From Alphaproteobacteria bacterium (GTDB lineage Bacteria > Pseudomonadota > Alphaproteobacteria > GCA-2731375), in NCBI GenBank assembly GCA_965225945.1, contig CBDDBZ010000033.1, forward strand, positions 64,001 through 128,000: a DNA stretch of 64,000 nucleotides, read 5' to 3'. The notes under the pieces are model-generated. The model did no database searches and had not been told where the DNA came from. It saw only the letters and a program-made list of their open reading frames with translations. Both the position numbers and the translations under genes were made by a program. Shown piece by piece: positions 2,421 through 43,165 of this stretch (position 1 is the stretch's first letter; each line of letters opens with the position of its first letter).

Positions 2421-3793
2421 TGTCGTTCCTCAAAACCTATTCCGCGGCGCGGGCGGGTCCGAGACGAACGACCCGGGCGACAGTGTCGGTCGTTGGACTC
2501 GGCGGAAAGATTGCAACGGTCGCATCGACCGATATGCACAAGCTGAATGTTGGCGCTGTGTTCTTTTTCTCAACGGTGTCGGCGCAGCGGAAACGGGCCG
2601 CTCGCTTCTTGCAGCACCTCCTGGGACAGTGCCGTTGTCGGTCCTTAGGCCGCGAGGCGCTCGTACCGGTGATGAAGTCCTCCAACTTGAGGAAACGCAA
2701 CCACCTTTCCGCCGTCGGCCGACTGGACGGGCCGTCCGTCGGGCGTATCCTTCCCGAGCGCCAAGTGCGTGCGAGACCCGTGGTAGTAGGCGAGGTAGGA
2801 GCAAAGAATCTGTCGGAGATGGCGCTCGTTGAGAACAATGACGTGGTTCAGACAATCTCGCCTGATCGAGCCGATTGCCCTTTCGACGAACGGATTGACA
2901 AACTTGTGTCCAAGGAACCGGGTGCGATACACTTGCAGCGGACAGTGCCATGGGCTTCGCGGCGCCGTCACAACCTCCTCGATGCCCATCGCCTTCAACC
3001 GCGCCCGAAACTCCTGACCGTACGCCCCGTCCCGATCACACATGATATACCGTGGTGCCGTGTCCCACGGAAAAACCTCGCGGATCTGCTGCGCCACCCA
3101 CGCCGTGGTCGGGTGTGCTGTAACACCGACGTGCTCGATGCGCCGCCGTTCGTGGCGTAGCACGATGAAGACGAACAGAACGGCGAACGTGGCCGTCGGC
3201 ACCACAAAGAAATCGGCCGAGACGAGGCAGCCGACGTGGTTGTCGAGGAACGTCCGCCACGTCTGCGACGGTGGCTTCCGATGCCGCACCATGTACCTCG
3301 ATACCGTCGCCTCCGATGCCTCGATTCCCAGCTTCATGAGTTCGCCGTGGATGCGAGGAGCGCCCCACAAGGGGTTCTCCCGACACATTCGACGGATGAG
3401 TTCGCGGACATCCTTGGGCACCGGAGGCCGTCCTGGTTTGCCGCGCCTGGATTTCCAGGTCCAGAATGCACGAAATCCCCTGCGGTGCCAGCCGATGACG
3501 GTTTCCGGCCTTACGATCACCAGCACCTCGCGCCAGCGCGGCCAAAGGCGGGAAAGGATGACCCAGAACAAGCGGTCGAGCGTCTGGAGCCGCGGCCGTC
3601 GCCGTTCCCGCTTCAGGATTGCCACCTGCTGGCGGAGGGCGAGGTTTTCCAGGTGTAGCGACGCGCGGCTGAGGAAGCTCTCGCGCAGCGTGGTGGAGAG
3701 AATCATGATGGTCGCTTGCATGCCGACGACGGTAGTCGGCAGTGGCCGGAAACGCTATGATTTCTGCGGCAGATGGGGTTTTGACGAGCCACA
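2421..3793 (-). mobile_element. IS481/IS3-superfamily-like IS with TGT...ACA ends
   Basis: Imperfect IRs TGTCGTTCCTCAAAACC (from 2421) versus TGTGGCTCGTCAAAAACC (reverse complement ending 3793) enclose the transposase; no TSD seen. Confidence 0.65.
2645..3721 (-). CDS. Integrase-core (DDE) transposase with a 16-codon in-frame insert
   Basis: ENPLWGAPRIHGEL, SADFF, CDRDG, NPFVERAIGSIRR, GGLHHRYERLAA. Confidence 0.88.
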   Translation of the reverse strand: MQATIMILSTTLRESFLSRASLHLENLALRQQVAILKRERRRPRLQTLDRLFWVILSRLWPRWREVLVIVRPETVIGWHRRGFRAFWTWKSRRGKPGRPPVPKDVRELIRRMCRENPLWGAPRIHGELMKLGIEASEATVSRYMVRHRKPPSQTWRTFLDNHVGCLVSADFFVVPTATFAVLFVFIVLRHERRRIEHVGVTAHPTTAWVAQQIREVFPWDTAPRYIMCDRDGAYGQEFRARLKAMGIEEVVTAPRSPWHCPLQVYRTRFLGHKFVNPFVERAIGSIRRDCLNHVIVLNERHLRQILCSYLAYYHGSRTHLALGKDTPDGRPVQSADGGKVVAFPQVGGLHHRYERLAA

Positions 3794-39955: not shown

Positions 39956-40624
39956 ATGCAAAGACCTACGGCCGTGTCACGGCGCAAGCTGCTTGGTGGC
40001 GTCGTTGCTGGTACCGGTGCGCTGATCGCAGGTAAGGCGGCGCAGGCAGCGTGCGCCCTCACTCCGCGTCAAATCAACGGGCCGTTCTTTCCGGTCGCAA
40101 TCAACGATTATGACTGGGATATGACTCACATGCCCGGCCGGCGCGACCGCGCCGTGGGCGACGTGATCGAGATCGTCGGCCGCGTGCTCGACACCGACTG
40201 CAAGCCGCTCCGCGGCCCCATTCTCGACGTGTGGCAGGCTAACGCGGCGGGGCGCTATCTGCATCCACGTGATCCCAATCCGGCACCGCTCGACCCCAAT
40301 TTCGAGGGCTATGCCCGATTATATACCGAAGCGGATGGGGTCTATCGAATTCGAACGATTGTTCCCGGCGCCTATCCAGTGGAACCGGACTGGGTGCGCC
40401 CGCCGCATATTCACTTCAAGGTGCACCCGGCGACCGCGCCGTCTATCACCACGCAAATGTACTTCGCCGGACACGAGTTGAACGACAAAGACGGATTGTA
40501 TGCGCAGACGCCGGAGGCGGCGCGCCCGCTCATAACCGTCGCGTTCGACAATTCCACGGCTGACGGAGTTCGTCTCGGCAATTTCGACCTGCACGTCGAA
40601 ACCGGTCCGGAACTGCCGATCTGA
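39956..40624 (+). CDS. Tat-signal intradiol dioxygenase-like protein (PcaH family)
   Basis: SRRKLL Tat motif, GPFF, VWQANAAGRY, PGAYP, RPPHIHF, TQMYF. Confidence 0.85.
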   Translation: MQRPTAVSRRKLLGGVVAGTGALIAGKAAQAACALTPRQINGPFFPVAINDYDWDMTHMPGRRDRAVGDVIEIVGRVLDTDCKPLRGPILDVWQANAAGRYLHPRDPNPAPLDPNFEGYARLYTEADGVYRIRTIVPGAYPVEPDWVRPPHIHFKVHPATAPSITTQMYFAGHELNDKDGLYAQTPEAARPLITVAFDNSTADGVRLGNFDLHVETGPELPI

Positions 40625-40937
40625 CAAACCGCGAAACCAATATGAGGTCGTCGTCGATACGGTTGTCGCCTCGATGACCCGGAAGGTTACCTGGGCCGAC
40701 GACCGAGGTGGCACTAGCGCGAAGTTGGACGACGTGGACAAGGCCGACTTGGGGTCATCTCCAGCCGGTTAGAATCCGCTAATGTTTTGGAGAGTCTTGT
40801 GGGCACTCCTGACGTCGATTCAGCGAAAGATGGTATATCGCGGCGGCTGTGGCTGATGATATCAGGATGATGGCAGCCCCTTCACGCATGATCGATAAAT
40901 CGGGGTCGCCCTGACCTCGAACATCGAGGAAGGAGCG

Positions 40938-41990
40938 ATGACGATGGCACATTTCGTAGGTCTGGATGTTTCGGTGAAGGAGACGGCGGTATGCGTCGTC
41001 GACGAGGTTGGCGAGGTGGTGTTGGAGCGGAAAGTGCCGACCGAGCCGGACGACATCGTCACGCTGCTGACCTCGATCGGCGTGGCCTATGGCCGGATCG
41101 GGATCGAAGCCGGTCCGCTCTCGCAATGGCTGGTCAACGGTCTTGCCGCCGCCGGGCTGCCGGTTGTCTGCGTCGAGACTCGGCACATGAAAGCACTGCT
41201 CAAGGGGCAGCAGATCAACAAGAGCGACCGCAACGATGCGCGCGGCATCGCCCAGATGATGCGGGTCGGGCTGTTCAAGCCGGTGCATGTGAAGACCCTG
41301 GTTGCCCAGGAGCAGCGGATGCTGCTGACCAGCCGCAAGCTGCTCCAGAGAAAACTGCTCGACGTCGAGAACGATCTACGCGGGACGCTGCGCAACTTCG
41401 GTCTCAAGGTGGGCATGGTCAGCACCCGCGGGTACGAGGCGCGGATCCGCGAGCTGGTCGAAGACTTTCCGAAGCTGGCCGCTATTGTGGAACCGCTGCT
41501 CACCGTCCGGCGAGTGATGCGCCAGCAATTCGCGGTCCTCCACAAAATGGTGCTCGACACGGTCCGCCATGACCCGGTCTGCCGACGGCTCATGACGGCA
41601 CGCGGCGTCGGCGTGGTCGTCGCGCTGACCTACCGGGCTACCATTGATCAGCCGCAGCGCTTCGTTCACTCCAGGGCGGTCGGCGCGCATGTCGGCCTGA
41701 CGCCGAAGCGCTTCCAGTCCGGCGAGATCGACTATGATGGTCGCGTGTCCAAGTGCGGCGACAGCATGCTCCGCACGATGCTGTACGAGGCCGCGCAGTC
41801 GCTCCTCACCCACGGCCGGAAATGGTCCTGGCTGAAGGCGTGGGGCATGCGAGTGGCCCAGCGACGTGGCATGCGCCGTGCCATCGTCGCCGTCGCGAGG
41901 CGCCTGGCCGTAGTTCTGCACCGCATGTGGGTCGACGGCACCGAGTTCCGCTGGAGCAACGGCCCTGCTGACGCCGTCAAGGCGGATTGA
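40938..41990 (+). CDS. IS110 family DEDD recombinase
   Basis: GLDVS, GIEAG, KSDRNDA, GLTP..FQSG, AVARRLA. Confidence 0.95.
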   Translation: MTMAHFVGLDVSVKETAVCVVDEVGEVVLERKVPTEPDDIVTLLTSIGVAYGRIGIEAGPLSQWLVNGLAAAGLPVVCVETRHMKALLKGQQINKSDRNDARGIAQMMRVGLFKPVHVKTLVAQEQRMLLTSRKLLQRKLLDVENDLRGTLRNFGLKVGMVSTRGYEARIRELVEDFPKLAAIVEPLLTVRRVMRQQFAVLHKMVLDTVRHDPVCRRLMTARGVGVVVALTYRATIDQPQRFVHSRAVGAHVGLTPKRFQSGEIDYDGRVSKCGDSMLRTMLYEAAQSLLTHGRKWSWLKAWGMRVAQRRGMRRAIVAVARRLAVVLHRMWVDGTEFRWSNGPADAVKAD

Positions 41991-42040
41991 ACCTTCGACT
42001 GTACTGACAAGGAGATCAACGAGTTCTGCTTAGGCAGAGA

Positions 42041-42209
42041 GATGTCCTCACGGGGACGACGGGTGGGGTGAGTTCGTAATGTCGGTAGACCCTGCCGCTG
42101 ACCGGCGGCAAGGACGCGCGAAAGATTGAACCGCCTCATCCTCTGATCCCATCATGAGGTGGCCACGCGCCAACCTCGAAGAGAAGCAAGAGCCCCGTGC
42201 GGCAACATC
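42041..42209 (+). ncRNA. Putative bridge/seek RNA of the IS110 element
   Basis: Closing stem CACGGGG/CCCCGTG and two internal loops carrying target-matching (AATGTCGG, GCGAAAG) and donor-matching (CCATC, AGAGAAG) segments. Confidence 0.8.
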
Positions 42210-42370
42210 CGCCAGTGCGGAACGACGTGAAGAAGGAATATGGCATGACGTAACCAGAAAGGGCTTGACCGAGGACGCGATAGAGAAGCCGACATTCGGT
42301 CCCGGTCGCACTTGCCCCCCTCCCCGCCAACGGGCAAGCTCGGCGAAACGAACTGGAGGAGGAAAACGCC

Positions 42371-43165
42371 ATGTCGCGCGCGGAGATCAACGGAACCACT
42401 ATTCACTACCACTTCGACGGCTCCGACGACGCGCCCGCCGTCATGCTGTCCAACTCGCTCGCCTCCAACCTTTCGATGTGGGACCACCAGGTGCCGGCGC
42501 TGCTGGAGGCCGGCTACCGGGTGCTGCGCTACGATAGCCGCGGCCACGGCCGCTCTTATGCGCCGGCGGGGCCCTATTCGATCGAGCTGCTGGGCCGCGA
42601 TGCGGTCGGCTTGATGGACGCTTGCGGGCTCGACCGGGTTCGTTTCTGCGGCCTCTCCAAGGGCGGCATGGTCGGCCAGTGGCTCGGCGCCAACGCCGGC
42701 GATCGGCTGATCTCGCTCGCGCTCTGCGATACCGCCTCGCACATGGAAGGCGGCGGCGATGCCTGGCAGCAGCGGATCGAGGCGGTCGAGGCGGGTGGCA
42801 TGGAAGCCGTCGTCGACGGCACCCTCGAGCGCTGGTTCACCAAGCCCGGAATGGCGCGACTGCCAGACGAGGTCGGCGCCGTCAGGGCGATGATCCTGGG
42901 CACGCCCGTCGTCGGCTTCCAGGCCTGCTGCATGGCCATCCGCGACATGGACCTGCGCCCGGGACTCGGGCGGATCACGACGCCGACGCTGGTCATCGTC
43001 GGCGAGGAGGATCCCGGCACTCCGGTCGAGAAGGCGCGGGAGATCCACCAGGGGATCGCCGGCTCGGAACTGGTGATTCTGCCGGACTGCGCGCATCTCT
43101 CGAACCTCGAACAGGCGCCCGCGTTCAACGAGGCCCTGCTCGGCTTCCTCGCCCGCCACGGATAG
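42371..43165 (+). CDS. pcaD: 3-oxoadipate enol-lactonase
   Basis: LSNSLAS...MWD.Q, RYDSRGHG, GLSKGG, AHLSNLEQ. Confidence 0.85.
   Translation: MSRAEINGTTIHYHFDGSDDAPAVMLSNSLASNLSMWDHQVPALLEAGYRVLRYDSRGHGRSYAPAGPYSIELLGRDAVGLMDACGLDRVRFCGLSKGGMVGQWLGANAGDRLISLALCDTASHMEGGGDAWQQRIEAVEAGGMEAVVDGTLERWFTKPGMARLPDEVGAVRAMILGTPVVGFQACCMAIRDMDLRPGLGRITTPTLVIVGEEDPGTPVEKAREIHQGIAGSELVILPDCAHLSNLEQAPAFNEALLGFLARHG

Follow-up and report, generated by a model that had tools for sequence, protein, structure and literature searches.

Can the RNA that directs an insertion sequence be read from the DNA of a single copy, together with the sites that it recognises? A locus in a 64,000-nt stretch of an alphaproteobacterial genome raises this question (Alphaproteobacteria bacterium, GCA-2731375; assembly GCA_965225945.1, contig CBDDBZ010000033.1, positions 64,001-128,000, forward strand; hereafter the window). 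An initial annotation had described an IS110 element here, with an intact, reprogrammable recombinase and, 3' of its gene, an RNA with two internal loops whose guides match the element's own target and donor. Our analysis leads us to hold with high confidence that the locus contains an intact IS1111-group element, which combines a DEDD RNA-guided recombinase with a bridge RNA (or seekRNA) of about 160 nt in its right non-coding end.

The insertion sequence spans 1459 bp (40830-42288; positions are those of the window, and all features given below lie on the plus strand), with the core dinucleotide AG written at its right end. A search of its own genome (6.27 Mb, 39 contigs) with this interval returned 10 full-length matches (query 1-1459) at 98-100% identity, all of them in the same orientation and with similar flanks, as well as a further copy that two other insertions have cut into three pieces and a solitary 3' fragment of 262 bp. 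Because all 10 full-length copies share them, the ends read from motif matches are the real ends, and the boundaries first drawn from flank matches at 40829 and 42289 stand. Insertion is site- and orientation-specific in 10 of 10 copies and repeats only the AG (AAG in this window). The left end opens with the terminal extension ATGGTA (40830-40835), the right donor half of the circle junction, in which ATGG is conserved in relatives; the right end closes with the extension GAGAAG (42283-42288, by direct reading), whose last two bases are the core AG. Just inside these lie the sub-terminal inverted repeats TATCGCG (40836-40842) and CGCGATA (42276-42282), which pair with each other. In relatives the sub-terminal repeats are 9-10 bp long, and both arms change together between subgroups (TATCGCGGC versus TAATCGGCCG). 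Outside the transposase gene, the non-coding left end measures 108 bp and the right end 298 bp.

The transposase gene (40938-41990) encodes 350 aa, with a DEDD RuvC-like N-terminal domain and a C-terminal domain carrying a GL-P----SG motif. PF01548 (DEDD_Tnp_IS110) matches residues 7-153 with 68.9 bits (cut-off 29), PF02371 (Transposase_20) matches residues 215-294 with 69.7 bits, and the NCBIfam model NF033542, "IS110 family RNA-guided transposase", scores 247 bits against a cut-off of 140; all three bear out the assignment to the IS110 family. The translation contains GLTPKRFQSG, which fits the motif G(L)-P----S(T)G defined for the family in the excerpted text of PMC11187229. By sequence, its sole relatives in the PDB are the transposases of ISCro4 and IS621, and its GLDVS, IEAG and KSDRNDA segments align with ISCro4. 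The recombinase also proved intact as annotated, in that the 350-aa frame is open in the window and a frame of 348-350 aa is open in 9 of the 10 full copies, the tenth (L008) being broken at 211 aa.

Two short segments in the 3' non-coding end correspond to the two flanks. The left target half GCGAAAG (40823-40829), whose last two bases (40828-40829) are the core AG, recurs as the left target guide GCGAAAG (42118-42124), which includes the core, has the sense of the left flank and is complementary to its bottom strand. The right target half, CCGACATT (42289-42296, by direct reading), has its reverse complement in the right target guide AATGTCGG (42078-42085), identified by direct reading and by covariation. 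Across the 10 full copies, the right flank CCGACATT is exact in 7 and has one mismatch in the other 3. The left flank GCGAAAG is exact in 5, with 1-2 mismatches in the remaining 5. The guide islands themselves are identical in 8 of the 10 (all except L008 and L009).

A scan of one genome per prokaryote species yielded 559 relatives, and we used the best 80, at 65-95% amino acid identity. Most of these 80 come from Alphaproteobacteria such as Sphingomonas, Devosia, Novosphingobium and Bradyrhizobium, in addition to many metagenome-assembled genomes (MAGs). In this set the DNA 3' of the gene is strongly conserved save for two short variable islands, and the left and right ends are conserved as well, so that junctions can be placed. 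The islands were anchored on invariant neighbours, a GAGTTCG-like motif ahead of the first and ATTG behind the second. Counting the window, there were 81 elements, 63 usable for the right guide (with 8 nt or more of right flank) and 67 for the left (with 10 nt or more of left flank); elements cut by contig ends, elements missing the anchor motifs and L054, with its disrupted RNA region, were excluded from the guide counts. Merging duplicate guide-flank pairs left 50 right and 64 left pairs.

Both guides covary with the flank that they are expected to read. Right guide and right flank share a mean of 6.88 pairs out of 8, compared with 5.23 when guides are permuted among all elements and 5.72 when they are permuted within subgroups, and 0 of 5000 permutations scored as high; 22 pairs reach 8/8 and 16 reach 7/8 (at least 7 in 38 of 50). 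For the left guide the mean is 5.05 out of 7, against permuted values of 3.48 and 3.56, again with 0 of 5000 as high. The per-position signal extends from +1 to +8 on the right and from -3 to -7 on the left, and is gone outside these limits (on the left from -8 on); it coincides with the segments picked out in the initial annotation. At least 28 distinct right guides and at least 33 distinct left guides occupy one conserved scaffold. Covariation of these guides with the flanks across homologues was the check that the initial annotation had proposed for its claim that loop 1 matches both flanks on opposite strands; the result is positive for each guide and agrees with the direct reading.

Two sister copies in one MAG (L043 and L044) present the same relation on a small scale: 14 substitutions in about 1512 bp and a 42-bp terminal duplication set them apart, and 4 of these substitutions are located in the two guide islands, following the different flanks of the two copies, with an 8/8 match between right guide and flank in L044. 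The duplication in L044 is in tandem at its right terminus and gives two end copies in a row, which at first made its guide and flank look mismatched. As to the description of the element as reprogrammable, natural reprogramming is seen among the relatives and in published family members; for this element itself, we infer it.

The same comparison bears on the core. AG is invariant at the end of the left flank, at the right end of the element and at the end of the left guide. Just before it, at left-flank position -3, all four bases occur, and 52 of 56 loci have there the base of their left guide (a base other than A in 17 of the 52); the right end of the element always has A. Since position -3 follows the left guide while the right end is always A, the core common to donor and target is AG. 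The AAG core proposed earlier was therefore not borne out, position -3 varying with the target, and the AAG repeat in the window is a coincidence of its particular target.

The candidate bridge RNA or seekRNA region is a conserved scaffold at about 42041-42199, which reaches the 3' strand of an outer stem. It is defined by an alignment (A1) of 60 distinct sequences from the element and its relatives. The segment 42030-42215 folds at -79 kcal/mol (z = -3.40; 1 of 200 shuffles equally stable). The outer stem, in which 42049-42055 pairs with 42193-42199, is found in both the minimum free energy (MFE) and the centroid fold of this segment and has at least 6 consecutive pairs in 59 of the 60 sequences, the exception being L067, which is without the 3' strand; covariation is seen in the compensatory variants CACGGGG/CCCCGTG, CGCAGGG/CCCTGCG and CTCGCGGG/CCCGCGAG.

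Consensus folding of A1 with RNAalifold gave three features: the basal helix of a target-binding arm (5' strand 42058-42076, pairing with 42127-42143), the distal hairpin of that arm (42091-42113, with 42091-42099 pairing with 42104-42113), and a hairpin separating the donor guides (42156-42177, with 42156-42163 pairing with 42169-42177). Over the whole fold, 17 of 29 predicted pairs vary on both sides and 97.4% of cells are paired, compared with 29-53% when partners are slid; none of 500 shuffles attains any of five covariation measures. Two-sided changes occur in 7 of the 15 pairs of the basal helix (helix 1; 97.3% of cells paired), 6 of the 7 pairs of the distal hairpin (helices 2-3) and 4 of the 7 pairs of the donor-side hairpin (helix 4; 99.8% of cells paired). 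The two target guides occupy the opposite strands of an internal loop. Those for the donor lie on either side of their hairpin, in a junction (multiloop) closed by the outer stem, and RNAalifold found no basal helix around them in A1. Of the two internal loops first described, then, loop 1 stands, and loop 2 is replaced by a multiloop with no enclosing helix of its own; the outer stem and the placement of the RNA 3' of the transposase gene are both upheld, the latter by this conserved, covarying scaffold in the 298-bp non-coding end.

In the RNAalifold consensus, a local 5' hairpin (A1 columns 5-19) was favoured over the outer stem. We rejected this candidate, as none of its pairs shows a two-sided change, each being invariant or altered on a single side. 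The letters of its loop covary with the outer stem's 3' strand, and the two structures may form at different times.

On the donor side, the 5' guide ATCCCATC (42146-42153) is complementary at 7 of 8 positions to the octamer formed by the core G and the opening 7 bases of the left end. The 3' guide, AGAGAAG (42180-42186), is identical to the right end of the element (42282-42288, 7/7) and invariant in 60 of 60 aligned sequences. The correspondence between donor guides and element ends that had been annotated is thus retained, with the amendment that CCATC (42149-42153) is the 3' part of a longer 5' guide. With that, every motif named in the initial annotation is found at its position by direct reading.

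One relative, L067, has an unusual right end. The element ends exactly at the internal AGAGAAG (locus positions ~3597-3776 and downstream), with the right target half CGGACATCG directly after it, and is without about 100 bp, including the 3' strand of the outer stem and the -35 box. It would have originated either by deletion via an 8-bp direct repeat or by use of the guide-coding DNA as an alternative right end.

The right end also carries the -35-like hexamer TTGACC (42265-42270), a candidate half of a junction promoter. In the computed circle junctions of 62 loci, the best sigma-70-like -35 always falls within the right end; 61 of 62 loci have TTGAC, and 61 of 62 have a spacer of 17 nt; the -10 hexamer across the junction reads GATGGT or GAAGAT. 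The 17-nt spacing is kept although the -35 lies 3 nt farther from the junction in one subgroup. These computed junctions make a promoter at this position plausible. Between 40700 and 42400 there are two terminator-like sites, both on the minus strand, inside the gene and not usefully above shuffle expectation.

Contigs of four metatranscriptome runs cover parts of the element. One contig (41993-42264) takes in the entire 3' non-coding region that follows the stop codon; a second, from another run (42042-42358), begins where the conserved scaffold does and continues into the flank that belongs to this copy. Since DNA may be present in libraries of this kind, this cover is a weak hint of transcription only. 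The runs that hold the element exist as contigs, in which RNA ends, strand and level are not readable and uncovered parts carry no meaning; the start of the second contig at the scaffold start is likewise a weak hint, as DNA carry-over or assembly breaks would give the same picture. No circle-junction joint is listed for the contigs of these four runs, which are contigs only.

By analogy with the family, the following mechanism would be expected. The element would be excised as a circle, and its abutted ends would form the donor site and probably a promoter, with the -35 in the right end and the -10 across the junction. Recombinase mRNA and guide RNA would be co-transcribed, and the recombinase-RNA complex would align donor and target through four pairings, with strand exchange at the AG core. 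In the target loop, the 5' strand AATGTCGG is complementary to the top strand to the right of the insertion point, and the 3' strand GCGAAAG, identical to the top strand on the left, would pair with the bottom strand there; both reach the core AG, and ATCCCATC and AGAGAAG match the left and right element ends in like manner. The product would be a one-orientation insertion into a host repeat resembling repetitive extragenic palindromic (REP) sequences, in which nothing but the core is duplicated.

The target is a small REP-like repeat family. The genome of the element has 7 sites with one mismatch to the 15-mer target (left 7 plus right 8) and 31 with up to two; 13 of these 31 near-target sites fall in two small repeat families, palindromic and REP-like, and the insertion in the window lies in one of them. 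Four of the 7 one-mismatch sites have C in place of the core G and are unoccupied (C25:157323, C29:100456, C29:102710 and C36:267677). These four sites fit, and suggest, a requirement for the core G, short of proof.

Several points weigh against the reading of this locus as an intact RNA-guided element. The fit of the left guide is loose, with the exact 7-mer in 5 of 10 own-genome copies and a mean of 5.05/7 in relatives. Six of the 50 right-guide pairs match at 5/8 or less (L051, L056, L058, L060, L068 and L077). The misfit of L058 and L077 reflects the register of the other subgroup, since the fixed register rule misplaces them, which depresses the observed score and leaves the null unaffected; the misfit of L051 comes from an extra AAG at its right end. 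The low scores of L056, L060 and L068 have no register or end-shift explanation. In the own genome, the altered guides of L009 fit its flanks no better than the common guides would. The donor guides, like the ends, are nearly invariant, and therefore almost no covariation evidence bears on the donor pairing. A search of 40600-42500 against the 4227 families of Rfam 15 (E <= 1) gave 0 matches, and a sigma-70 promoter scan of 40700-42400, the integrated copy, gave 0 sites, so that expression would rely on a junction promoter or on read-through. The junction promoter of the initial annotation keeps its TTGAC and its 17-nt spacing, but its -10 (GATGGT) is weak and the junction scan had no chance control. 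Finally, transcription, RNA-protein binding, circle formation, strand exchange at AG and reprogrammability are, for this element, carried over from the family by analogy.

The alternative that survives best is that the element is of the right kind and this copy, or the whole set in the genome, is a recently silenced relic that is passively inherited. The own genome holds 0 exact unoccupied copies of the 15-mer target (0.007 expected by composition), and the missing internal promoter, the broken frame of L008 and the copy split by other insertions would all be in keeping with a relic. Passive copying has occurred as well: L003, L009 and the split copy (L011/L014) have at least 400 bp of flank in common on both sides at 99.8-100% identity, with identity dropping to about 0.82 over the first 800 bp, and are therefore part of a larger duplicated unit. 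The full and split copies nevertheless represent 9 distinct contexts once this duplicated unit is taken into account, and 9 of 10 open frames, 8 of 10 identical guide islands and 98-100% identity speak against a relic. Three unoccupied sites keep the left 7-mer and the core intact and have one distal right-side mismatch, a pattern that fits recent activity. We give the relic a small chance.

Much less probable still, in our estimate, is that the target- and end-like segments act as DNA, either as decoys or as transposase binding sites, and that there is no transcribed guide RNA. The DNA coding for the 3' donor guide has the sequence of the right end, and L067 ends there with a normal target half adjoining, so that this DNA can behave as an end. 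Three observations argue the other way. The helices around the segments keep their pairing by compensatory changes, which indicates selection on a single-stranded fold; one guide is sense and the other antisense to the target, as for RNA-DNA pairing with both strands; and published IS1111 members, as described in excerpts of PMC11187229, require their RNA and co-purify with it. Chance matches of 5- to 8-mers in GC-rich sequence, which we consider next to impossible, might explain individual short motifs, CCATC alone being expected by chance, but are already refuted by the symmetric position of four motifs at exact ends that 10 copies set independently and by the 0 of 5000 permutations in the covariation comparison.

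A few further observations concern other copies and the surroundings of the insertion. The split copy (L011, L012 and L014) lies at G000:C37:368927-374285 in the own genome, and its pieces overlap by 7 and 10 query bases; these overlaps look like target duplications of the intruding elements. The solo 262-bp 3' fragment (L013, C37:60701-60962; query 1198-1459) adjoins a normal right flank and holds the RNA from inside the conserved scaffold onward, without the gene. L009 (C29:43159-44614) has a cluster of changes between the window equivalents of 41967 and 42120, which hits both target guides (G to T at 42084, G to A at 42120) and may be a gene-conversion patch from another variant. The same genome contains other IS110-family genes (L015-L019, on C13, C30, C16 and C11) with 65-71% DNA identity over part of the transposase gene; four of them have equal score, and they are probably a second multi-copy IS110-family element. 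In the window, the insertion sits between a gene with a Dioxygenase_C domain (39956-40624) and a gene for an alpha/beta-fold hydrolase (42371-43165), in a spacer within the REP-like repeat.

RNA-guided IS110/IS1111 recombinases are under development as programmable DNA-insertion tools, and RNAs of the IS1111 type are less understood than those of the IS621 type. No new kind of system is revealed here, and the importance of the locus is modest: together with its relatives it supplies clean triples of guide, target and donor, among them sister copies from one genome whose differences are nearly confined to the guides, and guide lengths, core and scaffold are readable from this material. For annotation, it shows that the target of such elements, here a REP-like repeat, can be predicted by direct reading of their 3' non-coding end. 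It is tempting to speculate further, and we do so tentatively, considering it possible though doubtful that the clade is a natural reprogramming panel that sets the rules of IS1111-type RNAs, with a synapse of different geometry and with guide DNA that serves as an alternative right end. If this were true, rules as yet unpublished for IS1111-type RNAs would be an AG core, a left guide in which AG follows 5 specific nt, and a right guide with 7-8 nt in addition to 1-2 nt of the core. Donor guides around a multiloop hairpin, taken together with the reversed order of the guides, would mean that the synapse differs in geometry from the solved IS621 and ISCro4 complexes, and 3' donor-guide DNA used as an alternative right end, as in L067, would be a built-in route of self-truncation.

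How does the element compare with known systems? The IS110 label holds at the level of the family; judged by its sequence, the element is more precisely a member of the IS1111 group and a new example of a known system, because of its sub-terminal repeats, the lengths of its ends, its 350-aa GL-P----SG transposase, its downstream RNA and its guide order. In IS1111 RNAs the segment complementary to the top strand lies 5' of that complementary to the bottom strand (Siddiquee 2024, PMC11187229, in excerpt), and here the top-strand complement at 42078-42085 lies 5' of the bottom-strand complement at 42118-42124. The sub-terminal inverted repeats of the group measure 7-17 bp according to excerpts of PMC11208160 and usually 11-13 bp according to those of PMC11187229, and the 7-bp repeats in the window fall at the lower limit of these lengths. 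Assigning the core to the right end gives terminal extensions of 6 + 6 bp, and assigning it to the left end gives 8 + 4 bp, a sum of 12 versus the published 9-10; the excerpts of PMC11187229 give 7 (or 6) bp on the left and 3 bp on the right. Donor guides in a multiloop are described for many IS1111 orthologues in excerpted sections of Durrant 2024 (PMC11208160). The closest matches in a plasmid collection are 81% identical and annotated merely as 'IS110 family transposase', and the element or its relatives may already be named or listed in ISfinder or in paper supplements.

Among proteins of known structure, the ISCro4 transposase (PDB 9t56) is the best match (E 1.5e-12), a distant one in which only the C-terminal 140 residues align confidently; GIDVS, KTDAVDA and ESG of ISCro4 align with GLDVS, KSDRNDA and QSG here. 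Protein similarity to IS621 is low (phmmer E 1.5e-11, C-terminal part only). As presented in excerpts of PMC11208160 and in the structures 8wt6-8wt9, IS621 has the same four pairings, with left guides on the bottom strand and right guides on the top strand of both target and donor, a core dinucleotide in every pairing, a target loop ahead of the donor part and a promoter rebuilt across the junction. In contrast, IS621 encodes its RNA ahead of the gene, within the left end, and has the left target guide 5' in the loop, whereas in the present element the RNA follows the gene, the guides come in the opposite order and those for the donor are in a multiloop. The core of IS621 is CT; the AG found here on the transposase-sense strand is CT on the other strand.

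ISPpu9 of Pseudomonas putida, compared by its description in excerpts of PMC12288879 only, is likewise an IS110-family element that inserts into REP sequences and has a small RNA gene downstream. ISPpu9 also has extra solo copies of the RNA; this genome contains the one solo 262-bp fragment, with no sign of modular transposition.

The element also resembles the IS1111-family seekRNA elements ISEc11, ISPa11, ISKpn4 and ISPst6, as far as the excerpts of PMC11187229 describe them. It belongs to a different, alphaproteobacterial clade and differs in its 7-bp repeats and, as the ends are placed here, in its 6 + 6 extensions. With ISEc11 it shares the lack of an internal promoter, a promoter being expected only at the circle junction, and with ISPa11 it shares a REP target. 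In common with these elements it has a transposase of the DEDD type, within the 330-350 aa of the group and carrying GL-P----S(t)G, as well as sub-terminal repeats, a long downstream RNA-coding region, the same guide order and natural reprogramming among its relatives.

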